From Zestosphaera tikiterensis (GTDB taxonomy: Archaea; Thermoproteota; Thermoprotei_A; Sulfolobales; NBVN01), in the NCBI GenBank assembly GCA_003056265.1, contig NBVN01000004.1, forward strand, positions 150,001 to 182,000: DNA of 32,000 bases, written 5' to 3'. Below the pieces are notes generated by a model that worked only from the letters and a program-made list of their open reading frames with translations, was not told the origin of the DNA and made no database searches. Below are positions 1,868 to 28,085 of this stretch, piece by piece (the first letter of the stretch is position 1; every line of letters begins with the position of its first letter). Made by a program: the position numbers and the translations under genes.

Positions 1868-3697
1868 ATGTTTATGAAACCACGTAAGTTATTAAGAAGA
1901 AGCTTCACGATTGAAACACTTAAGAATTTAGTTAAAGCTGCTAAGGGAGAATTGAAATCAACTTTAATCTTAAGGAACGCCAACTTAGTTGACGTTGTTT
2001 TAGGGGATATTAGAGAGAAGGTCAACATAGCTGTTTGGAACGGCTACGTAGTTCGAGTGGGTTATTTCGACGTGGATAGGTATAGAGGTGATGAAACGTT
2101 GGTTATGGACGTAAGCGACGCTGAAGCCGTGGTTCCGGGGTTTATAGACCCGCATGTGCATATAGAGTCTTCACTACTTAAGGTTAGTGAGTTTTCAAAG
2201 CTGGCTTTAATTAACGGAACCACTACGGTTGTTGCCGACCCGCATGAGATAGCGAATGTATTAGGTGTTGAAGGGGTTAAGGCTTTCATCGAGGAGTCTA
2301 GGCAAACGCCTTTAAGGCTGTTTTTCTACGTGCCTTCATGCGTGCCTCCAACAAAGCTTGAGTTCGGTAAAGCAGCTACGTTAACCGTGGATGACGTGAG
2401 GGAGTTGATGAAGTATGAGGAGGTCATAGGGTTGGGGGAGGTCATGGATTTCATCTCCGTGATTAACGCCGACGACGAAATACTTGAGAAGATCTCCATA
2501 GCTAAAGCAGCCGGTAAAGTAGTTGATGGGCACGCCCCTCAACTACCGGAGGAGATGCTTATCCCGTATATAGTGGCTGGTGTGGAGGCAGATCACGAGT
2601 CCGTGTATTTAGAGGAAGCACTTAATAAGTTGAGGAACGGCATGCGTGTTTTAATGAGGGAGGGGAGTGCGTGGAGGGATGTGGAGGAGCTTTCTAAGAT
2701 ATTGACTTACATGCGTATAAACACTAGATACTTAAGTTTCGCAAGCGATGATTTGGAAGTTACTGACATGGTTGAGAACGGGCATATGAATAGGATTTTA
2801 AGGAGGGCTGTGTCCTTAGGTGTGGATCCAATAACGGCTGTTCAGATGGCGACGTTAAACACGGCTGAGTACTTAGGGCTTAAGGAGTTGGGTGCTGTGA
2901 CGCCCGGTAGGTTAGCTGATTTAGTTGTTCTTAAGTCTTTCAGGATGTTTCACGTTAAGGATGTTGTGGTTAGTGGGGAGTTGGTGGTTAAGGACGGTTC
3001 CTACGTTTTTAAGGATGGTGTTAAGTATGAATACCCTGAGAAATTCTTCAAGTCTTTAAAGGTTGGTAAGGTGTTAAGCGTTAACGACTTTAAAGTTAAA
3101 GCCCCTATTAAGGAAGGTTACGTTAATTACCTAGTTATTAAGGCGGTACCGGGTAAAGCAGTAACTAAGTCTGAAGTTGTTAAACTCCCCGTTAGGGATG
3201 GGTGGGTTTCCCTACCTACTGAAGGGGATTATGCTTACGTAGCGGTTATTGAAAGACATAAAGGTAGTGGTGAGGTCGGCGTTACTGTAGTTAAGGGGTT
3301 GGGTCTTTTAAGGGGTGCTTTAGCTCAAACCATAGCTCACGACGTACATAACATAGTAGTCGTTGGTAAGACAGCTGAGGAGATGCTCTTAGCGGTTAAC
3401 GAATTGATTAGGGTTGGTGGGGGTATGGTGGCGGTTTTAAACGGTGTTTCAATAGCCTCGGTGGAACTCCCTATAGCTGGTTTAATCTCAAACGAGCCTT
3501 ACGATCAGGTCTACGCCAAAGTTAAGAAGTTTAGCGAGTCGGTTAAGGCTTTAGGGACTTCCTTCCACTCAATATTTATGACGATATCCCTACTTTCACT
3601 TCCGGTGATTCCGGAATTAAGGATTACTGAGAAGGGGGTTGTTGACGTGTTAAGCGGTAAAGTCATCAACCCTATATTAAGCTTCGAGGGTAGTTAA
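1868..3697 (+). CDS. ade: Adenine deaminase
   Basis: 609-aa ORF with the PGFIDPHVHIESS signature characteristic of adenine deaminases (compare GxIDxHxHIESS). Its length fits the family. It is divergent from the 392-1792 gene across an A/T-rich promoter region. The start could be ATG 1868 or ATG 1874. Confidence 0.85.
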   Translation: MFMKPRKLLRRSFTIETLKNLVKAAKGELKSTLILRNANLVDVVLGDIREKVNIAVWNGYVVRVGYFDVDRYRGDETLVMDVSDAEAVVPGFIDPHVHIESSLLKVSEFSKLALINGTTTVVADPHEIANVLGVEGVKAFIEESRQTPLRLFFYVPSCVPPTKLEFGKAATLTVDDVRELMKYEEVIGLGEVMDFISVINADDEILEKISIAKAAGKVVDGHAPQLPEEMLIPYIVAGVEADHESVYLEEALNKLRNGMRVLMREGSAWRDVEELSKILTYMRINTRYLSFASDDLEVTDMVENGHMNRILRRAVSLGVDPITAVQMATLNTAEYLGLKELGAVTPGRLADLVVLKSFRMFHVKDVVVSGELVVKDGSYVFKDGVKYEYPEKFFKSLKVGKVLSVNDFKVKAPIKEGYVNYLVIKAVPGKAVTKSEVVKLPVRDGWVSLPTEGDYAYVAVIERHKGSGEVGVTVVKGLGLLRGALAQTIAHDVHNIVVVGKTAEEMLLAVNELIRVGGGMVAVLNGVSIASVELPIAGLISNEPYDQVYAKVKKFSESVKALGTSFHSIFMTISLLSLPVIPELRITEKGVVDVLSGKVINPILSFEGS

Positions 3698-3698
3698 C

Positions 3699-5045
3699 TT
3701 GCTTACGTTGATTAAAAACGTTAAGTTAGTGCTTCACGGAAATGAAGTTACTGAAGCTTCTATAGTGGTTGAAGACGGTAAAGTAGGTGCTGTAGTTAAA
3801 ACCTACGACTACTTAAGTAAGTACGATACTGTTGTAGACGGTTCAGGGCTTTTAGCGATCCCCGGAGGTATAGACATCCACGCCCATATTCACGACCCTC
3901 AGTACCTACATCATGAAGACTTCGAAAGCGGTAGCGTAGCCGCTCTATATGGAGGTATAACGACGTTTTTCGACATGCCTTTACGTACTTACGTTGAGGA
4001 TAGGCAGTCCCTAGAGGTTAAGGTAGATGCCGGTCTTAAAATGTCTTACGTAAACTTCAGCGTTATTGCTGGGATGATGAATGAGAGGAACGTTTCTAAA
4101 GTCCCCGTACTTAGGGATTTAGGTGTTAAAGCCTTCAAAACTTTTACGTGTAGGCCCTTCAAACCTGAAAGCGATGGAGGTCTAGCTTTAGTTTTAAGTG
4201 AGGTTAGTAGGTACGGAGGGGTTAACGTAATACATGCTGAGGACGACTCCATACCTGAGTACTTAATGAGTAAGTTTAGAGGTGAGGGTAGGAACGACCC
4301 CCTAGCCTACCATGAATCAAGACCCGACGTTGTTGAGGGGATAGCACTTAATAAAGTTTTAAGCTTGACTTCCTTCTTAAACGTTAAGGAGGGGGTGCAC
4401 ATAGCTCATTTATCCTCCGCTTTAGGACTTAAGGAAATAGTTAAAGCTAAATCCGAAGGAATCAACGTAACTTCCGAAGTAACGCCGCATCATCTATTCT
4501 TCACTAAAGAAGACGTTAAGAAGTTAGGTAACTACCTTAAATTAGCTCCAACGCTAAAAACGAGGGATGACGTCATGGCTTTATGGCAAGGCTTAGCCAG
4601 GGGTTTCATAGAGTCCGTGGCTTCAGATCACGCCCCAGCCACTAAAGAAGAGAAGGAGGTAGATACGTGGAGTGCGTGGGGCGGCATACCGAATTTGGAG
4701 ACTATGCTACCTTTAGTTTTTACGTTAGGTTTTAAGAAGTTAAGCTTACTAACTTTAAAGAGGTTTATAGAGGTAACTTCAGAAAACCCAGCTAAGATTA
4801 TGGGTTTATACCCTGCTAAAGGGTCTTTAAGTGTGGGTTCCGACGCGGATATAACGCTTCTTGACGTAAATAAATGCTTTAAAGTTAAAGCGGATGCTCT
4901 CCATCATAAAGTCGATTGGACGCCATACGAAGGTGTTGAGATGTGTGGATGGCCTAGGAAAGTCTTCGTGAATGGTTTACTAGTTTTAGATGAGGGTAAC
5001 GTAATAACGGAGAATAGAAAACCTAAATATTTAAGGATAGTTTAA
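3699..5045 (+). CDS. Cyclic amidohydrolase (dihydropyrimidinase/allantoinase/dihydroorotase family)
   Basis: 448-aa ORF with the motifs PGGIDIHAHI, GGITTFFDMP, AFKTF (candidate carboxylated Lys), HAED and SDHAP. The TTG start lies 1 nt after the ade stop, which suggests translational coupling. Confidence 0.8.
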   Translation: MLTLIKNVKLVLHGNEVTEASIVVEDGKVGAVVKTYDYLSKYDTVVDGSGLLAIPGGIDIHAHIHDPQYLHHEDFESGSVAALYGGITTFFDMPLRTYVEDRQSLEVKVDAGLKMSYVNFSVIAGMMNERNVSKVPVLRDLGVKAFKTFTCRPFKPESDGGLALVLSEVSRYGGVNVIHAEDDSIPEYLMSKFRGEGRNDPLAYHESRPDVVEGIALNKVLSLTSFLNVKEGVHIAHLSSALGLKEIVKAKSEGINVTSEVTPHHLFFTKEDVKKLGNYLKLAPTLKTRDDVMALWQGLARGFIESVASDHAPATKEEKEVDTWSAWGGIPNLETMLPLVFTLGFKKLSLLTLKRFIEVTSENPAKIMGLYPAKGSLSVGSDADITLLDVNKCFKVKADALHHKVDWTPYEGVEMCGWPRKVFVNGLLVLDEGNVITENRKPKYLRIV

Positions 5046-5052
5046 AACCTTC

Positions 5053-5295
5053 TTAAACAACTACAGGTATCTTCGCCTTCCTCAACAACTCCCTAAAGTC
5101 TTCTAAATCAAGTCCGGAGAAGTACGCTGCCCTCCTGATGTCTCCCGTCTCTATATAGTATTTTAAAGCCGCTTTAATTTTAGGGGGTTGCTTCTCTATG
5201 AAATCCCAATCAGCATGCTCCTTTCTAATTCTTCTAGCCTCCTCCTCTAACTCAACCCACTTTTTCTTTTTCATTGTTACCTCATCTTCACCCAC
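5053..5295 (-). CDS. UPF0175-like small antitoxin-type protein (copy 1)
   Basis: The C-terminal segment ALKYYIETGDIRRAAYFSGLDLEDFRELLRKAKIPV matches the UPF0175 pattern (...G.is.g.AA.laG.s...F..ll...gIp). The start overlaps the PIN-like stop by 8 nt (GTGGGTGA). An alternative ATG lies at 5274. Confidence 0.6.
   Translation of the reverse strand: MGEDEVTMKKKKWVELEEEARRIRKEHADWDFIEKQPPKIKAALKYYIETGDIRRAAYFSGLDLEDFRELLRKAKIPVVV
5147..5215. repeat. 69-bp perfect direct repeat, copy 1 (inside UPF0175-like gene 1)
   Basis: gtctctatatagtattttaaagccgctttaattttagggggttgcttctctatgaaatcccaatcagca is identical to 5929-5997. The flanking bases differ on both sides. Confidence 0.95.
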
Positions 5296-5845
5296 AGATC
5301 CTCCCCTTAATTAATTCTAATGCGTTTGTTAAATCTCTCCTAGGGAAGAAATGCCGAGTATCTTCTTCGTAGGCTTTAAATAATGTGTTTAACTCATTAC
5401 AACTTACTTTAAACATACCTTCGATGACGGCAGCCGTCAAGATCTCAAGAGCTCTCCAAACTACGACGTCTTTATAAGGAGTTATGAAGTCTACAGCCAT
5501 TATAGCCCCTCTATTTTCCGTTAAGACGACATACCCTCTCCTCCTACCTATGACTAAGCATAAAGCTTCAGGAAGGTCCACAGGGATTAAACTTCTAAGC
5601 TTTCTTGACTCTTCAGTAAGTTTCCTAGCTTCCTCAAGCTCTTCTGAAGTTTCCGTGTAGATGGACATATTACCTGAAGCTAGAGCTGAAGCAACCCACT
5701 CTACGGTTCTTTCAGATTTAATCTCTTTTAAAACTGATTCACTCACATATACAATATTAAATAACTTAAACATTAAGTCTCTATATCTGAAGCGAGCCCA
5801 ATCAATTATAAAGCAGGTGTCGGCTATAGCGAACCTAACAGACAT
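5288..5845 (-). CDS. PIN-like (DUF3368/COG2405-type) predicted nuclease/toxin
   Basis: 185-aa ORF. It has an N-terminal acidic-residue strand (IADTCFIID), a central PEALCLV segment, and LTENRGA in the position of the family DDxxAR motif. It is flanked on both sides by UPF0175-like ORFs with overlapping start and stop codons. Confidence 0.55.
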   Translation of the reverse strand: MSVRFAIADTCFIIDWARFRYRDLMFKLFNIVYVSESVLKEIKSERTVEWVASALASGNMSIYTETSEELEEARKLTEESRKLRSLIPVDLPEALCLVIGRRRGYVVLTENRGAIMAVDFITPYKDVVVWRALEILTAAVIEGMFKVSCNELNTLFKAYEEDTRHFFPRRDLTNALELIKGRICG

Positions 5846-6065
5846 TAGGTATCTTAGCCCTCACTCTAAGCTCGTTAAACTCATCAACAGTTAAACCAGC
5901 TATTCTTGAAGCCACGTACATATCGCCAGTCTCTATATAGTATTTTAAAGCCGCTTTAATTTTAGGGGGTTGCTTCTCTATGAAATCCCAATCAGCACAC
6001 TCCCTTCTAACCCTCTTAGCTTCATCGACATCCTCACGAGAAACCTTAGCCCTAAGGATCAACAC
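5835..6065 (-). CDS. UPF0175-like small antitoxin-type protein (copy 2)
   Basis: 76 aa. It shares the identical block ADWDFIEKQPPKIKAALKYYIETGD with copy 1. Its stop overlaps the PIN-like ATG by 11 nt. Confidence 0.6.
   Translation of the reverse strand: MLILRAKVSREDVDEAKRVRRECADWDFIEKQPPKIKAALKYYIETGDMYVASRIAGLTVDEFNELRVRAKIPNVC
5929..5997. repeat. 69-bp perfect direct repeat, copy 2 (inside UPF0175-like gene 2)
   Basis: Base-for-base identical to 5147-5215, offset 782 bp. Confidence 0.95.
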
Positions 6066-6239: not shown

Positions 6240-6433
6240 TTGGGTTACGTTAAGGTTAAAGCTAGGGTGTGGTGTTTAGAAAGCGGTGTTTCTAAGGAGG
6301 TATCCTTGCTTGCTGATATTGGAGCTATATATACTACCCTCCCAAGTAGTTTCCTAAAAGAGCTTGGTGTTAAACCAATGGACGTTAGGAAGTTTAAGTT
6401 AGCGAATAGCAGGATTGTTGAGAAGGAAGTAGG
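6240..6433 (+). pseudogene. Retropepsin-like (clan AA) small aspartyl protease, 5' fragment of an insertion-disrupted gene
   Basis: MGYVKVKARVW...VSLLADIGAIYTTLPSSFLKELGVKP...ANSRIVEKEVG matches the archaeal small aspartyl protease pattern (vDTGA..t.lP). After about 6433 the reading frame runs into unrelated element sequence and stops at 6479. Confidence 0.7.
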
Positions 6434-6464
6434 GTACGGGAGTAGTTTCTTGTTTGTAGGTTTT

Positions 6465-7481
6465 TCAAGGTCTCTGTAGGCTCCTTAATGCTCTTAGTGC
6501 CACTATGTATGCTGATGCTGTGTGAATATCTAGTCCTAGGTCTTCAGCTACTATTCGAGCAGATATTGAACTATAAAAGCTGGGTTTATTTTAATTAGTT
6601 TTTCATGAACCTTAGGAACTAACACCTCCATTTGCTGAATAAACTCTCTTAAAGCCATTTTAGTTTGCTTCCTCTTAGCAGTCTTGATTCCCTTTGGCTC
6701 CGGCCTAGAGAGCTTTTCAATAGCGTAATATCCTACTCCATGCTCTCTAGCATACTTTACTAGCCTGGCAATAGCTTCCTGCCTAATAGCTTTAGCGTTC
6801 TCTTTGAGGAAACCATGAGATGTAACCTCAGGAAAGTGTTCATTTTTAATATCCCTAATGATGCCTTTCCTATCTATTATGACCATACATACCCTACCAG
6901 GGTTAAAATCAAAACCCGCTATGTGTCCTACTATTTTAGCTTTTGTCTTCTTTCCTATGTATTTGGTGTAAAGTTCGAGAGGAACACTTACATGTATTTC
7001 AAAGCATTTGCTCTTTAAATAGATTCCTGCTCCATACGTGATGTTGGAGGCTATTAGCTCCTGTATTATGGGTATGTATTTCCTACCGAATTTAGCCTTG
7101 GCGATTATCCATCTATGCCTGCCGGATGCCGATGGAATCTTAATCTTAACAATATCTGATGAAACGAATTTTATATTCCTATTTACTTTTTTCGTCTTTG
7201 CTTCCTACCGAGAATAACTGTGGCTTTTTAAGCTTAAGATATGGTTGCTCTCTATATAGTCTAGCTCTTTTATATGCTGAGTAGGAGTACCATTTGTTAT
7301 TCAATATCCTCGATGTAAGTAGCTTGACAATTTCATTTTCTTTTACTCCTTTCCTCATTAATGAGTGAGCATACTCTACTGCATCTTTAAAATTCCTCAT
7401 AACGTATAGGAGAAGACCTCTATCTTCAGGTGAAGAAACTATGAGCCTACCTTTAATTGTTGGCTTTATTTCTTTCTCCAT
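6465..7481 (-). pseudogene. TnpB/IS605-OrfB-like RuvC-fold protein lacking the zinc-ribbon, broken by two 1-nt homopolymer frameshifts
   Basis: Three minus-strand frame segments join into a ~340-aa protein. Segment 1 is 7481-7179 (MEKEIKPTIKGRLIVSSPEDRGLLLYVMRNFKDAVEYA...). Segment 2 is ~7190-6551 (...IKIPSASGRHRWIIAKAKFG...VGHIAGFDFNPGRVCMVIIDRKG...YYAIEKL...KINPAF). Segment 3 is ~6575-6465 (YSSISARIVAEDLGLDIHTASAYIVALRALRSLQRP*). Candidate RuvC acidic residues sit in GFDFN, AIEKL and GLDIH. There are no Cys pairs between NPAF and LDIH, where TnpB normally has CxxC...CxxC. The shifts occur at an A6 run (~7185-7190) and a T4 run (~6580). Confidence 0.6.
6468..6480. repeat. Left subterminal inverted-repeat core of the element
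   Basis: AGGTCTCTGTAGG. Its reverse complement matches 7807-7819 at 12/13 positions. TGTAGG also occurs at 6454-6459. Confidence 0.7.
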
Positions 7482-7624
7482 TTCTCAACTACCATCCTAT
7501 CATTCTCCTCATCATAATAAACAATTAGCTTATCACCTTCTTTCAATCCCATCCTTTCAGCAACCTCTCTCGGTATAGTCATTCTCAGCTTAGGAAGTAC
7601 CCTATAGACACCCACTAATTCCAT
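7466..7624 (-). CDS. AbrB/SpoVT-type (looped-hinge helix) small DNA-binding protein
   Basis: My own translation gives MELVGVYRVLPKLRMTIPREVAERMGLKEGDKLIVYYDEENDRMVVEKWRKK* (52 aa). The ...MTIPREVAERMGLKEGDKL.V segment is the SpoVT/AbrB signature. It overlaps the TnpB-like ATG (7481) by 16 nt. A TATATAAA box lies ~20 nt upstream, so the transcript may be leaderless; an alternative GTG start lies at 7615. Not in the ORF track because it is under 60 aa. Confidence 0.6.
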   Translation of the reverse strand: MELVGVYRVLPKLRMTIPREVAERMGLKEGDKLIVYYDEENDRMVVEKWRKK

Positions 7625-7640
7625 AGTATCCCCAGAAACA

Positions 7641-7664
7641 TTTATATACCTCTAGATATATAAA
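7641..7664. promoter_or_regulatory. Palindromic bidirectional TATA element inside the insertion element
   Basis: The sequence is TTTATATA-CCTCTAGA-TATATAAA. The 8-bp arms are perfect inverted repeats, so a TATATAAA box faces each direction. One faces the AbrB/TnpB-like operon on the minus strand. The other faces the GC-rich segment 7687-7845 on the plus strand. Confidence 0.55.
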
Positions 7665-7686
7665 TTTAGTGGTACTCTCAACCCTG

Positions 7687-7845
7687 ATGATGAGGGCGAG
7701 GGGGATGAGCACCAAGTGAACTATGCTTCGCCAATGGCTCTGGAGAACATAGCGACCCTCTGGAGCCGTAGGCGGGGCATAGGGATGCTTAGCCGTGATG
7801 AACCGTCCTACGGAGACCTAAAAAGACCGTAGGCGAAGAACGGTT
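7687..7845 (+). ncRNA. Candidate structured RNA (R1) at the element end, reading outward toward the flank
   Basis: GC content rises sharply against the AT-rich surroundings, starting ~25 nt downstream of TATATAAA (7657-7664). Stems seen by eye are CCCT/AGGG (7682-85/7693-96), GGCGAG/UUCGCC (7695-7700/7727-7732), GGCTC/GAGCC (7737-41/7763-67) and CCGTAGG/CCTACGG (7766-72/7807-13). There is also a terminal hairpin AACCGTCCTACGG-loop-CCGTAGG(CGAAGA)ACGGTT (7801-7845) that ends exactly at the inferred element boundary. No ORF is present. Strand and ends are inferred, not shown. Confidence 0.35.
7801..7845. repeat. Right-end subterminal hairpin of the element
   Basis: AACCGT (7801-06) pairs with ACGGTT (7840-45). 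CCTACGG (7807-13) pairs with CCGTAGG (7827-33). The loop is 13 nt and there is a 6-nt bulge. CCTACGG can alternatively pair with the upstream CCGTAGG at 7766-72. Confidence 0.6.
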
Positions 7846-8008
7846 AGTAGGTATTGAAGTTATGGGGTTAAGAACACATACTGTGGTAATTTTCGGTGAT
7901 GAAGGCGTATACCTCTTGGGTGTTGTTACGTTAGAGGAGTTAGGGCTTGAAATAGATCCTATTAAAGGTGAGCTTAAGCCAGCTGAGTTATTGTTAATGA
8001 AGCTTTAA
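7846..8008 (+). pseudogene. Retropepsin-like aspartyl protease, 3' fragment
   Basis: Translation from ~7852 gives (G)IEVMGLRTHTVVIFGDEGVYLLGVVTLEELGLEIDPIKGELKPAELLLMKL*. This matches the conserved C-terminal half of the small archaeal aspartyl protease family (..viFG.eg...LLGv.tLE.LGL.vDP..g.L.p). Confidence 0.7.
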
Positions 8009-8517
8009 ATAAGTGCTTAACTACAGCAAAATTTAGCAATTTAAAGCGCTTCATAACTATCTAAACAGCTTTCCTACTCTTCAAGTTACGTGAAACGTTA
8101 AAACATACTGTAAGAACGTTAGGTTTAAAACACGTGGTGAAATTGCTACTATCTTAATCACACCGTAACATTACTTAAATGGAGGGTGTGACATCAATCT
8201 TAACACATCCGCTATATGAACGAAGCCTGTGATTCCATAGTAAGGTTTTCAGATTATGACTTCCTCACTCAACATCCTAGTGACTTAAATCATCTATTTG
8301 TTTTCGTTAAATCTAAACTCTATTCCTAATGCGTCATTCCTTAGTCTTGGGAGGTCTTAAAGACTTTATGCGAGGAAAGCGTGAGCGTAAATCTAGTACA
8401 TTGAGCATAAATTATAAACCTCTGCCTCATCCTTACGAATTAACCCCCTGAAGATTTAGTGGGTGCCGTAATTTTAAGGTTAATAAGGTGTGAACGTTAT
8501 TATTTTTGGTGCTTTAG

Positions 8518-9270
8518 TTGGCTGAGAGTTTAGCAGTGAGTTTGGTTGAGCCTATAATTCAAGAGTATGTTAGGAGGGTTATTGAGAAAGCTAGGGCTGG
8601 TAAGAAGCTTAGCGATTGGGAGATAGGTATGTTGATGATGGATTATATGAGGATATCGTTATCGAATAGGATTAGCTCTGTTGAAAAGACTTTGTCTGTA
8701 AGGATTGACTTAATGGAGAGTAGACTTAATGGTGTTGAGGGTAGGCTTGATCGTGTTGAGTCTTCCGTTAATGACTTTAGAGAGAAGCTCACAACCTTCG
8801 ATAAGAAGTTTGGGATGATTGAATCTAGGCTTGAATCTCTTGAAGGTAGGCTTAACAGCGTTGAAGGCAGACTTAACGGTGTTGAAAACAGGCTTGATCA
8901 TGTTGAAGGCAGGCTTGACCGCATCGAGGGTAGGCTTGATCGTGTTGAGTCTTCCGTTAATGACTTTAGAGAGAAGCTCACAACCTTCGATAAGAAGTTT
9001 GGGATGATTGAATCTAGGCTTGAATCTCTTGAAGGTAGGCTTAACAGCGTTGAAGGCAGACTTAACGGTGTTGAAGGCGGCCTCAACGACTTAAGGAGTA
9101 AGTTCGACGCTTTCGATAAAAGATTTACGATTGCGGAGAGTAAACTCGTAAACGTTGAGAAAGGCGTTGAATACTTGAAAGGAAGCCTAGACTCACTAAG
9201 AGATAACGTAATAAACGTTTTAGTTGCTGAACTTAAGAGAAGAGCAGGTATAGAGTCAAAACAGCCGTAG
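8518..9270 (+). CDS. Heptad-repeat coiled-coil protein of unknown function
   Basis: 250-aa ORF. Its central part is made of xxRLxxVE heptads (ESRLNGVEGRLDRVESSVNDFREKL...). It has a non-repetitive N-terminal ~60 aa and no catalytic motif I recognise. Confidence 0.7.
   Translation: MAESLAVSLVEPIIQEYVRRVIEKARAGKKLSDWEIGMLMMDYMRISLSNRISSVEKTLSVRIDLMESRLNGVEGRLDRVESSVNDFREKLTTFDKKFGMIESRLESLEGRLNSVEGRLNGVENRLDHVEGRLDRIEGRLDRVESSVNDFREKLTTFDKKFGMIESRLESLEGRLNSVEGRLNGVEGGLNDLRSKFDAFDKRFTIAESKLVNVEKGVEYLKGSLDSLRDNVINVLVAELKRRAGIESKQP
8737..9075 (+). repeat. Perfect 150-bp duplication with a 189-bp (63-codon) period inside the coiled-coil gene
   Basis: 8737-8886 is identical to 8926-9075, checked line by line. 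The duplication is in frame and duplicates GRLDRVESSVNDFREKLTTFDKKFGMIESRLESLEGRLNSVEGRLNGVE. Confidence 0.95.
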
Positions 9271-9501
9271 GATCCTTAGATTTAGCTACTTAACTAATTC
9301 TATCCATCAGTTATTAAAAACGAAATACGTTTAACCATAGATTTAAAGCTATCTTAAGACTGTTTGTACTTCACCTTCCGTTGACGGAACCGCAGAACTT
9401 AAACTCCGAATCACGAACTCCCGTATGTAGAGAAAAGATGAAAACTCCAAAAAAGCAGGTTGTTAAATGTTTCAACTGTGACTCAACTCTAAGTAGACAG
9501 C

Positions 9502-9509
9502 TATATAAA
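9502..9509 (+). promoter_or_regulatory. TATA box (TATATAAA) upstream of GC-rich segment R2
   Basis: This is the same octamer as in the element promoter. The GC-rich structured segment begins ~35 nt downstream (9543), and the expected transcription start is near 9532. Confidence 0.4.
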
Positions 9510-9542
9510 GCAATAGATATCCACTTCAAGATGTGTAGTTTT

Positions 9543-9716
9543 CCCTAAAGCCTGAGCGTCTCCCATCACGTGGTGATTAAGGAGGTGATCCCTCGGTGGG
9601 GGACGCGGGTGAAGGCTTTAGGTGGGGTTGCCACGAATGGGGGTGAGGGCGATGACAAGCCACCGATGAACTCAAGAGACGACTAAACCTAATGAACCCC
9701 AAGGTCTACATAGGCA
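9543..9716 (+). ncRNA. Candidate structured RNA (R2) with a K-turn-like junction and an internal 12-13 nt complement of the 16S rRNA 3' end
   Basis: This is a GC-rich island in an ORF-free region. The outer 10-bp stem is CCTAAAGCCT (9544-53) with AGGCTTTAGG (9613-22). The inner 9-bp stem is GCGTCTCCC (9556-64) with GGGGGACGC (9598-9606). The two stems are joined by GA on one strand and GGGUGA on the other, which is K-turn-like. The enclosed loop contains AAGGAGGTGATCC (9579-9591). The block TGAGGGCGA..GATGA..TGAACT (9644-9675) is collinear with 7691-7722 of R1. Confidence 0.35.
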
Positions 9717-10218
9717 TACAAACACCTATATAAGCAGAATCCCAGAATATTTCATAGCATAGCAGTAGTATTGGGTTCGGGTTTGAACGTCATTTCTGGT
9801 TACTCTCTTCATCCCCTCATTTTTTGTTCCTCCGTTCCGTCTGGTTTCATCCTTCACAGCGGAGGCTCTTAGGGGCGACCCAAACACCCCCGCACACGCT
9901 TAACCACTTTTCCCTTCTATTCCTTAATACTACCTCAGGGATCCACCTACCCTATAGGTGGATAAACCCCTCATCAACCCAAAAAACAATACTCACTTCT
10001 AACATATATAAACCTTTAAAATAGAAAGAAATTAAAAACATTTAAGAATATCAAGGAATTACATAAAGGGCGATACGGCTATGTTAAGCTCTACCTTAGT
10101 TTGAAACATATGTTGCTCTGAAGGATTTCGCTTAAGCATGGATACAATCATTTAATATGCTATGCGAATATGTTCAGGTAGTTCAAGGACTGTGAAAATG
10201 TATGAATGGTTAATGTTC

Positions 10219-10740
10219 TTAAGACTTATTTCTACCACTTAGTTCCTTTAAGATTTCTTCTTCACTTATCGCTTTCACTAATATAGTCTCTACATTGAGA
10301 TTTCTCGCATGAATAGCCATAGACTCATCATCTGTTAATAATAGGGCTTTAACGTTAAACGCTAAAGCTATGAAGTAAGTATCAAATCCTGACGGAGCTT
10401 CCAACAACGCTACTTCCACTGCCTTGTTAAATAGCAAATCTTCGTTGACTACAATGAAGGTTCTCTCAATAGTACTCACTATATCACTCACCATATCCCG
10501 GCTCAAGCTATTCCTTCTTAATACCGCAACTACCTCAACAAGCCCAGCTCTAGGGAAGTATATAAAGTACCTATTTTTCTTAAGCAGTCTCGTGATAGTC
10601 CTACATTTTTTATGAGTAGACAATTCCCTATCATAAACATTACGTGGTAGATGTTTAGCTGGCTTCAATAAGCTCTTTACGATGACTGTCGTATCTAAGA
10701 CTATGTTAGCTACTTCCTCTCGCACGTCCACGTACCTCAT
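10219..10740 (-). CDS. PIN-domain protein (VapC-like toxin)
   Basis: 173-aa ORF. It has the N-terminal [10 protein letters not shown] acidic strand, an internal E (GLVEVVAVL) and the LTDDESMA motif. It lies directly downstream of, and overlaps, a DUF104-type antitoxin gene. The true start is probably a little downstream of 10740. Confidence 0.7.
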
Positions 10741-11142: not shown

Positions 11143-11219
11143 TGGTGGGGCCGCGGGGATTTGAACCCCGGACCACGGGGACCCGAACCCCGCATTCTAC
11201 CAAGCTAAACTACGGCCCC
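11143..11219 (-). tRNA. tRNA-Pro (anticodon CGG), CCA encoded
   Basis: The minus strand reads GGGGCCG-UA-GUUUAGCUUGGUAGAAU-G-CGGGG-UUCGGGU-CCCCG-UGGUC-CGGGG-UUCAAAU-CCCCG-CGGCCCC-ACCA. It has a 7-bp acceptor stem, a 5-bp anticodon stem and a U33-CGG-G37 loop. The T arm is GGGG/UUCAAAU/CCCC. A CTTTTAA TATA-like box (rc of 11244-11250) is centred ~27 nt upstream. Confidence 0.95.
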
Positions 11220-27880: not shown

Positions 27881-27909
27881 TTTATAAGCTTTCTCTAGCT
27901 TAATATATT
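27881..27909. promoter_or_regulatory. Divergent promoter region between trkA and ncRNA candidate R3
   Basis: The sequence is TTTATAAG-CTTTCTCTAGC-TTAATATATT. A/T boxes are usable on either strand, and an AAGCT/AGCTT inverted repeat lies between them. Confidence 0.4.
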
Positions 27910-27911
27910 GA

Positions 27912-28085
27912 GTTGGGTGTGGGCAACCGTGGCTTGGGATGAGTCCCACACCTTCCCGGTGTTGGCGGCGGGAGCTGATAGATGATGCGCCCTCTGTGAG
28001 GGGTTTCAGAGAGGTGATGGAAGCCCTAGGGGGAGAACCTCCGCCATGAATGGCGGAGAGCCGTCAGCTACTCACTACCCCTAAA
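27912..28085 (+). ncRNA. Candidate structured RNA (R3), GC-rich, rich in K-turn-like GAUGA motifs
   Basis: This is a GC island in a 330-bp intergenic region with no ORF. Stems seen by eye are GGTGTGGG/CCCACACC (27915-22/27944-51), AGCTGA/TCAGCT (27973-78/28064-69), CTCCGCCA-TGAA-TGGCGGAG (28040-59) and CCCTC-TGT-GAGGG. The motifs GGATGAGT, CTGA-TAG-ATGATG and GGTGATGG are present. The strand is chosen from promoter position and motif orientation only. Confidence 0.4.

Follow-up and report, generated by a model that had tools for sequence, protein, structure and literature searches.

The omega-RNA (reRNA) of TnpB from IS200/IS605 elements is a structured scaffold situated at one end of the transposon; its 3′ end crosses the element boundary, and its partner is the RuvC-type TnpB protein. 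For an archaeal branch of these proteins, the RHH/MazE-TnpB clade, which has been called non-mobile, a role in toxin–antitoxin systems was proposed and the guide RNA was suggested to reside in the 3′ untranslated region (UTR) (Altae-Tran et al, 2023, PNAS; PMC10691335). The locus described here appears to contain a degenerate member of that clade. It is located on contig NBVN01000004.1 of Zestosphaera tikiterensis, of which 32,000 nt (positions 150,001–182,000, hereafter called the window) were analyzed, and it is accompanied by ~950 bp (9271–10218) without a credible gene. The GC-rich segment within this stretch is, in our view, probably a composite of two unrelated parts: an orphan copy of a conserved kink-turn (K-turn) RNA that belongs to RHH/MazE-TnpB elements, and a hairpin, designated H, which carries an exact complement to the 3′ end of 16S rRNA.

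A K-turn RNA divergent from mazE-tnpB

An initial annotation of the window had placed an insertion element to the left of the stretch in question. Such an element is present; its identity, however, is that of an RHH/MazE-TnpB unit, consisting of a TnpB-like pseudogene and a MazE-like gene (Table 1). The first frameshift of the pseudogene is found at an A-run near 7180 and the second close to the C-terminus, with the change of frame preceding DLGLDIHTASAYIVALRAL. Conceptual translation of 7481–6466 leads to a family of ~340-aa proteins (PF27229), some of which carry the annotation IS605 OrfB; the gene for a member of this family is always preceded by a MazE or RHH gene, and the C-terminal consensus of the family reads DLGLDxHTASAY. 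The AbrB/MazE or RHH gene followed by a ~340-aa TnpB, the His in place of the RuvC-III Asp, and the archaeal distribution are all shared with the published clade, to which the element, judged by its sequence, belongs.

A conserved, RNA-like segment of ~165 nt is found upstream of mazE/RHH-tnpB; it is oriented divergently from these genes and has its own TATA box. Scanning the GTDB representative genomes with the protein alignment yielded 80 loci, which are distributed over Thermoproteota, Baldrarchaeota, Thermococci, Archaeoglobi, Methanomethylicia, and further groups. The RNA is positioned ~200–350 nt upstream of the tnpB-like gene (L012–L099 and L135 in our numbering of the loci). A covariance model of this RNA (R1), which was built only from the copies of other genomes and with which the window was scanned with filters off, scores the copy at 7676–7847 at 59.3 bits (E 1e-16). 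When 47 copies were aligned to R1, 96.5% of the cells pair, compared with 65% in shuffles and 32–49% with slid partners, and 27 of the 30 pairs show changes on both sides; this alignment was fitted to R1 and is hence biased toward its structure. Independent MAFFT/RNAalifold runs yielded compensatory changes for 19 of 27 and 14 of 30 pairs.

The RNA begins with P1, a short hairpin built around GAUGAWGA-GGCGA; GAUGAGC and GAUGAAC come next. Its center is occupied by P2, a long hairpin that is interrupted by an internal loop and the pairs of which covary. At the 3′ end (P3), a box C/D-type K-turn (GGGU-RAU-GA ... GA-ACCC, or CCGU ... ACGG) encloses a palindromic hairpin (consensus CCUACGUAGG), and the terminal stem switches between GGGU/ACCC and CCGU/ACGG among the copies. 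Similarity among them ceases 3 nt past the terminal stem; thus, the end of the family RNA coincides with the element boundary, and the RNA reads on into the flanking sequence. Two motifs of the initial annotation find their place in this architecture. The block at 7691–7722 represents the 5′ domain of the element's conserved RNA, the direction of which is opposite to that of the protein genes; the “subterminal core” constitutes the palindromic hairpin inside the 3′ terminal K-turn.

In intact elements, the K-turn RNA would accordingly be transcribed from its own TATA box away from the mazE-tnpB operon, fold into P1, P2, and the terminal K-turn, and extend with its 3′ end into the DNA beside the element, similar to the guide of a TnpB omega-RNA. 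Its layout resembles that of an omega-RNA, and by this analogy it may act as a guide. Unlike an omega-RNA, it has its own promoter, is divergent from tnpB, does not overlap the 3′ end of tnpB, and carries box C/D-type K-turns. It also differs from the published description of the clade, because the conserved, covarying RNA is found upstream and divergent, with this placement recurring in at least 50 loci, and not in the 3′-UTR. No published description of a divergent K-turn RNA was found in the searchable literature, a limited collection of papers. This RNA, the main by-product of the present analysis, is a concrete candidate for the guide RNA of the clade, and it suggests that L7Ae may join the TnpB ribonucleoprotein.

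A further point of departure from the published, immobilized view of the clade concerns mobility. The element (~6460–7848) splits a gene for a retropepsin-like aspartyl protease (an identity resting on a weak Pfam Asp_protease_2 match), the halves of which are found at 6240–6479 and 7862–8008 on the plus strand; this interruption suggests that the RHH/MazE-TnpB unit is or was mobile. GTAGGT is present at both junctions (6455–6460 and 7843–7848). The tnpB-distal end departs from that of the closest relative (L015) at 6485 and may be truncated.

Some observations were made on elements elsewhere. One locus (L083) harbors two copies of the family RNA, at 1561–1727 on the plus and at 3072–3233 on the minus strand; the second adjoins a 189-aa minus-strand open reading frame (ORF), which may be a truncated tnpB, and clustered or degenerate elements occur elsewhere too. 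In two unrelated genomes (L044 and L062), the tnpB-distal end of the element (...AGGC) directly abuts a sequence starting with GAUGAU; that of L062, a Thermococcus metagenome-assembled genome (MAG), resembles a box C/D small RNA (sRNA) gene (5027–5086, plus strand; GGC-GAUGAUU ... CUGA ... GUGAUGA ... AUGA-GCC). Insertion could thus prefer sites beside C-box-like motifs, although most other copies do not show such a pattern.

A stretch without genes in a variable island

The window has a GC content of ~41%, and the stretch at 9271–10218 extends between the stop codons of two genes. The longest ORFs within it comprise 66, 55, 53, and 52 aa; for the 66- and 55-aa ORFs, both on the plus strand, no Pfam match was obtained, and tblastn with 66 family proteins detected no TnpB-like remnant in it, the nearest copy being the pseudogene 1.8 kb away. 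The initial annotation had considered this stretch free of genes, which is borne out by these results, and every sequence feature it named was recovered. Two GC-rich islands of opposite skew are discernible, one at 9550–9700 (63% GC, with G exceeding C on the plus strand) and one at 9800–9950 (with C exceeding G). Scanning the whole window against Rfam 15 at gathering thresholds retrieved tRNA-Pro alone, and the E-value mode, applied to 7300–10400, gave nothing meaningful and no C/D match above noise; no known RNA family in Rfam therefore accounts for the segment. Neither blastn nor a repeat search inside the window revealed significant repeats of the region.

The stretch is part of an island. 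The 6 kb between 5134 and 11143 of the window correspond to merely 576 bp (7962–8538) in a syntenic relative (L001), with both flanks sharing 84–88% nucleotide identity. Relatives reached via the neighboring MoxR ATPase gene (the best named ones being Zestosphaera and Desulfurococcales MAGs) are also without the island. Its right edge is marked by tRNA-Pro (11143–11219, minus strand), the 3′ end of which it adjoins; the tRNA gene is 96% identical to that of L001, with the anticodon being CGG here and UGG there. No att site, direct repeat of the tRNA end, or duplicated tRNA fragment was found at the island edges. The cargo includes toxin–antitoxin-like small genes, PIN-like genes, and a mobile element. 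We consider it reasonably probable that the ORF-free stretch is a relic zone within this variable island next to tRNA-Pro.

Also within or at the edge of the island, two paralogous small ORFs on the minus strand (5053–5295 and 5835–6065) have the sequence ADWDFIEKQPPKIKAALKYYIETGD in common; the former, which runs into the beginning of a 185-aa ORF, probably belongs to a toxin–antitoxin-like module.

A probable decayed orphan copy of the K-turn RNA

When 9271–10218 was compared by blastn with all fetched loci, one significant match was obtained: 9648–9743 corresponds to 1454–1551 on the plus strand of L044, a Wolframiiraptor MAG contig, with an identity of 77% across 99 nt (E 5e-13). There, the matching segment follows directly on the tnpB-distal end of an RHH-TnpB element (ACAUAAGGC at the junction, continued by GAUGAUAAGCC). 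Both copies can be aligned up to GAAYCCC (position 9743 of the window), beyond which they diverge. A hidden Markov model (HMM) of these two copies matches the 3′ domains of the canonical RNAs, with E values of 4e-4 for L044's own RNA and 0.2–7 for others. R1 finds 9701–9739 with 13.8 bits (rough E ~0.004) at model positions 118–156, that is, the terminal palindromic hairpin, which is its best non-self match in the window. At 9644–9672, UGAGGGCGA and GAUGAACU (GAUGAAC(U)) are spaced at a comparable distance and resemble the most conserved 5′ motifs of the family, although no model aligns this 5′ part significantly. The initial annotation had seen in this region a decayed or miniature relative of the neighboring element, on account of short motifs resembling it. 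As motifs these are weak; AAGGTCTACATAGGC (9701–9715), for instance, deviates from the motif of the element in 3 of its 15 nt, and roughly one match of this quality is expected per window. The comparison with L044 and with R1 nevertheless supports the proposed relationship, and the order of promoter, scaffold, and end motif that had been noted agrees with the layout of the family RNA.

The L044 copy folds into two K-turn modules (−28.6 kcal/mol), of which A reads GGC-GAU-GA ... CU-GA-GCC and B is similar to P3. For the window copy, a folding energy of −10.4 kcal/mol (z score +0.27) was obtained. Within its module A, two G-to-A changes relative to the box-D-like CUGA-GCC of L044 destroy the GA and the closing stem. 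The hairpin of module B contains two C·A mismatches, compared with a perfect 8-bp stem in L044, and the 5′ half of its closing stem is absent. P2 is missing as well, since merely 14–16 nt separate GAUGAAC from UAAUGAA. The loss of P2, of pairing, of the D-like GA, and of the closing stems is the reason why the copy is read as decayed. Furthermore, no mazE/RHH-tnpB pair flanks the stretch, and the only tnpB in the window is the pseudogene. From its modeled folds, 9646–9743 would thus most likely be a broken orphan of the family RNA, devoid of partner genes and inert.

Orphan or degenerate RNA copies are a normal by-product of IS200/IS605 elements, and the same appears to apply here. Compared with an omega-RNA, the orphan is without an upstream plus-strand tnpB, partner genes, a central hairpin, or a stable fold, and a guide role could be attributed to it by analogy only. 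Like PATE/MITE-like solo ends of IS200/IS605 elements, it is short and gene-less, has a palindromic hairpin close to its end, is located near a full element, and has a related copy in a distant genome; it differs from them in comprising one end-like module only, and neither a target duplication nor a second copy was seen. A remnant of the element's tnpB-distal end at 9625–9652 was considered and rejected, because an HMM of 12 such ends gave no match. Likewise rejected was the idea that the orphan is a part of the L044 element itself, as the sister element in L135 (protein 76% identical) is followed, after the same end (...ACAAGGC), by unrelated DNA. The motif GAUGA ... (CU)GA with short closing stems, known from box C/D sRNAs and K-turns, recurs in the family RNA, the L044 orphan, and on the minus strand at 9933–9979; in contrast to a box C/D sRNA, none of this is matched by an Rfam C/D model, and module A of the window has retained GAUGA but has CUAA in place of CUGA. 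Scans of IMG/VR with two orphan-specific patterns returned chance seeds only.

Hairpin H and its anti-16S sequence

Directly upstream of the orphan lies H (Table 1), with a fold of −44.3 kcal/mol (z score −4.74) whose stability was reached by none of 200 shuffled sequences. Two long nested stems joined by a GA/GGGUGA loop had been described in the initial annotation, which holds true; their lengths, given there as 10 and 9 bp, are 10–12 pairs for the lower and 11–12 for the upper stem, without a single mismatch in 22–24 pairs. The junction is K-turn-like, as had been stated, in that GA faces GGGUGA and would fit tandem G·A pairs (G9611·A9555 and A9612·G9554, followed by A9613–U9553), except that the bulge (GGGU) comprises 4 nt rather than the canonical 3; L7Ae binding is putative. 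The G–U pairs U9561–G9601 and U9566–G9596 can only form on the plus strand, and the minus strand folds at −35.9 kcal/mol (z score −4.6). Archaeal promoter geometry would put a transcription start at ~9532–9536, given the TATA-like octamer at 9502–9509. That this octamer is identical to that of the element's promoter had been recognized correctly; with five copies in the window versus 3.2 expected, the motif alone is weak evidence. With an internal loop of 2 nt opposite 6 nt and no ACA after the hairpin, H does not resemble an H/ACA RNA, nor, with no C box and CUCG following the 13-mer, a box C/D sRNA.

A search of 0.6 Mb of related loci, of plasmids, of phages, and of IMG/VR brought up no convincing homolog of H. 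An exact 21-mer around the anti-16S motif is absent from IMG/VR and from the GTDB representative genomes; its two matches in JGI metagenomes are due to chance and reside inside coding DNA of a 55%-GC bacterium (encoding EVIKEVIPGA). A covariance model made from H as a single sequence had one outside match in the related loci, P2 of the GC-rich family RNA of L027 (29 bits). The idea that H is a displaced P2 hairpin was considered and rejected, since the P2 hairpins of other copies did not score; the L027 match is a weak lead. L044 has no counterpart of H; homology there begins within ~3 nt of the insertion point of the element.

The upper part of H harbors the 13-nt complement to 16S rRNA. The initial annotation had called it exact and far longer than any Shine-Dalgarno motif elsewhere, and both statements stand: elsewhere in the window, on either strand, matches to the complement of the canonical 16S 3′ end do not exceed 8 nt. 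Complementarity was scored against the canonical sequence, the organism's own 16S rRNA gene being located outside the window. A match of 13 nt is expected by chance in about 1 of 100 such windows (estimated from 4^13 and the window scan). In the minimum-energy fold, only AGGAGG of the 13-mer is in the loop. The GUG micro-ORF that was reported to follow it is indeed present and starts at canonical spacing, 7 nt after GGUGA, in the descending strand of H. It comprises only 16 codons, of a GC-rich composition that is unusual in this genome, and its stop coincides with the beginning of the orphan.

The simplest reading of H would be a structured 5′ leader or translation-initiation region, the frame of which now comprises 16 codons and ends at the orphan. 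A small gene split by the orphan was considered but is not supported, because the 42-codon frame behind the orphan has no homologous small protein among 1.84 billion representatives and an in-frame junction hangs on an uncertain boundary. Two other explanations for the 13-mer were discarded. A 16S processing stem or rRNA remnant on the minus strand is contradicted by the sequence upstream of GGAUCACCUCC, which is unlike 16S rRNA, by C·A mismatches in the stem, and by the lack of a small subunit rRNA match. A C/D guide for the 16S 3′ end would require an adjacent D or D′ box, and the 13-mer is not beside one; thus, it does not guide methylation in any known way. If the pre-rRNA reads GGAUCACCUCCUUAAUCACC, the complementarity extends to 20 nt (9572–9591), which would suggest antisense pairing with the 16S precursor.

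In Bacillus thuringiensis, STAB-SD of cryIIIA is a 5′ mRNA stabilizer, a strong Shine-Dalgarno-like sequence near the 5′ end of the transcript without a substantial ORF; the 30S subunit bound to it shields the transcript from 5′-to-3′ decay. It is a bacterial device, and we know of no archaeal case. The 13-mer in H, too, is not followed by a substantial ORF but differs in being partly buried in a hairpin. That its complementarity exceeds any other in the window by 5 nt, that it is exposed at the tip of a very stable, mismatch-free hairpin 33 nt after a TATA box, that the K-turn-like loop could recruit L7Ae, and that no conserved ORF follows would all suit H as the 5′ domain of a functional noncoding RNA. 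AGGAGG, or all 13 nt on opening, would then pair with the 16S 3′ tail, and the RNA would serve as a 30S decoy or sponge or as a stabilizer in the manner of STAB-SD. We nevertheless regard this as unlikely. None of the collections searched contained a homolog of H, and there is accordingly neither conservation nor covariation; L001, the closest relative, does without the region, which hence has no core function; 5 of the 13 nt are paired in the minimum-energy fold; and chance alone would give such a match in about 1 of 100 windows. The proposal of the initial annotation that the RNA titrates or mimics ribosome contacts is thereby neither supported nor refuted: with no homolog of H and no conservation of the ORFs downstream, titration of ribosomes by H stays speculation. 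Should the 13-mer, so far unexplained, recur in a complete genome or in relatives, it would become a rare candidate for an archaeal RNA aimed at the anti-Shine-Dalgarno tail.

H may also act at the level of DNA, as a palindromic site for protein binding or recombination or as a small palindromic mobile insertion, with the 13-mer being a by-product. Strong folding of both strands, inverted and direct GTGAT repeats within H (ATCAC-GTG-GTGAT and a repeated GGTGAT), and a setting that is a mosaic of mobile elements and toxin–antitoxin-like genes are in line with such a role. Since no second copy of H is present in the window or in related loci, and since the two G–U pairs and the positive GC skew favor a plus-strand RNA, we hold this to be improbable too. 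Jointly, a structured leader or initiation region whose frame is now defunct and a one-off palindrome are ranked ahead of a ribosome decoy, none of the three being demonstrated.

A possible joint transcript of H and the orphan

A different view would unite H, module A, and module B (9535–9745) in one stand-alone guide-type RNA that is equipped with a promoter and would serve, in trans, RHH/MazE-TnpB nucleases whose genes reside at other sites of the genome. The guide would start at 9744, H would be an extra 5′ module, and the L044 copy would have been truncated at its 5′ side by insertion of the element. As homology in L044 sets in within 3 nt of the element end, the orphan may once have extended farther 5′ there; moreover, the succession of TATA box, scaffold, terminal K-turn, and flank is that of the family RNA, stretches that are not canonical are 77% conserved between two archaeal orders, and H weakly resembles the one P2 hairpin mentioned above. 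That resemblance does not generalize, however, neither the pairing nor the D-like GA of the modules is preserved in the window, which contains no tnpB apart from the pseudogene, and the putative guide (9744–9763, 3′ of GAAUCCC) has no second match in the window; a trans-acting guide is therefore rather unlikely. We are just as doubtful of the broader notion that this transcript (~9535–9745) is a functional, K-turn-rich RNA, which either couples the transposon-derived RNA to the 30S subunit (by sequestering, sensing, or protection) or guides TnpB in trans.

The 3′ third of the stretch contains the T6 run that had been pointed out before, which may terminate a plus-strand transcript of ~290 nt. 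A consensus promoter/terminator scan found no terminator, but it looks for bacterial-type stem-loops and is uninformative for an archaeon. On the minus strand, G-rich sequence continues from the K-turn hairpin to ~9790, and the plus-strand GC skew is negative over 9800–9950; the folds of this strand are not significant (z scores from −1.0 to −1.8, the K-turn hairpin being at −1.8), and no fetched locus contains a homolog of 9933–9979. A transcript of the plus strand that stops at the T6 run and one of the minus strand that starts at ~9978 would overlap. It is very unlikely that the two form a convergent sense/antisense pair controlling a small peptide, similar to a type I toxin–antitoxin system (plus strand from ~9533 to the T6 run at 9820, minus strand from ~9978 toward a T-run at 9441): TATA-like boxes on both sides (9502 and 10005), the opposite GC skew of the halves, the hydrophobic 42-codon frame, and a Shine-Dalgarno sequence held in a structured leader would fit, but that frame has neither a start codon with a Shine-Dalgarno sequence nor a homologous small protein among 1.84 billion representatives, the minus-strand folds are insignificant, and comparative support is missing.

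We return to the ORF-free stretch as a probable relic zone in which a decayed orphan RNA adjoins an unrelated hairpin. An island with a decayed orphan, and no gene, would account for ~950 bp without coding capacity; the region itself would then be mostly the relic of a transposon-associated RNA, that is, ordinary biology of modest interest. Several observations weigh against this explanation. H is intact beside a decayed neighbor, which argues for selection or a recent origin and not for a relic. The leader reading of H is weak, as its 13-nt Shine-Dalgarno sequence far exceeds any real one here and the 16-codon frame is atypical, and the organism's own 16S 3′ end may differ from the canonical one that was used. 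The link of the orphan to the family is a weak one as well: an HMM of 11 full-length RNAs gives no match at 9640–9750 (E above 10), R1 recognizes the 3′ hairpin only, and the assignment, made from sequence, depends mainly on one homolog (L044) and on similarity at the level of motifs. Finally, only two orphan copies are known, too few for covariation, and an alternative fold of the window copy could still be working.

Table 1. Positions of the features discussed, in window coordinates.
Feature	Position	Strand	Basis or remark
TnpB-like (PF27229, ‘SSO2105_N’) pseudogene, two frameshifts	7481 to ~6466	−	Conceptual translation
MazE/AbrB-like gene, 52 aa	7466–7624	−	Pfam/sequence
Intact family RNA, reference copy	7676–7847	+	Own TATA box at 7657–7664; divergent from protein genes; ends at element boundary
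Coiled-coil gene (DUF7310)	8518–9270	+	Stop is left border of ORF-free stretch
TATA-box-like octamer TATATAAA	9502–9509	+	Same octamer at 7657–7664; ends 33 nt before H
Hairpin H: lower stem, K-turn-like internal loop, upper stem, small apical helix	9542–9624	+	Fold
Internal loop of H, GGGUGA opposite GA	9607–9612 and 9554–9555	+	Sequence and fold
AAGGAGGTGATCC, exact 13-nt complement of conserved 16S rRNA 3′ end (maximal Shine-Dalgarno sequence)	9579–9591	+	Unique in window
GUG micro-ORF, 16 codons	9596–9646	+	Starts 7 nt after GGUGA
Orphan (‘mini’) copy of family K-turn RNA, decayed, without P2	9646–9743	+	blastn, model R1, folds
Module A, GGC-GAU-GA ... GAUGAAC ... CUAA-ACC	9648–9689	+	Alignment with L044, folds
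Module B, UAAUGAA, palindromic hairpin, then AGAAUCCC; corresponds to P3	9690–9743	+	Model R1, alignment
Open frame of 42 codons, hydrophobic	9744–9869	+	After orphan copy; no start codon with Shine-Dalgarno sequence
T6 run, possible archaeal terminator	9820–9825	+	Sequence only
Candidate 5′ end of convergent RNA, box C/D-type K-turn hairpin	9933–9979	−	UGAUGA 9976–9971; 9-bp hairpin 9963–9941; CUGA 9938–9935
TATA-like TTTATATA	10005–10012	−	~25 nt upstream of minus-strand K-turn hairpin; nearly palindromic, orientation ambiguous
PIN-like gene	10219–10740	−	Stop is right border of ORF-free stretch

Flanking genes and a further GC-rich segment

For the PIN-like gene to the right of the ORF-free stretch there is no entry on record, and for the coiled-coil DUF7310 gene to its left no close homologs were found in a collection of 5.8 billion proteins. 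The latter gene contains an in-frame tandem duplication of 186 nt on the plus strand (8701–8886 and 8890–9075), the repeats being 91% identical. At a distance from the island, 27905–28080 (plus strand) is another intergenic, GC-rich (65%) segment, which is preceded by a TATA-like TTTATAA and contains GAUGA and CUGA-like motifs. It obtained weak, sub-threshold Rfam matches (HgcC, 22 bits, E 0.005) and is probably an unannotated structured RNA, for example, an H/ACA- or C/D-type sRNA.

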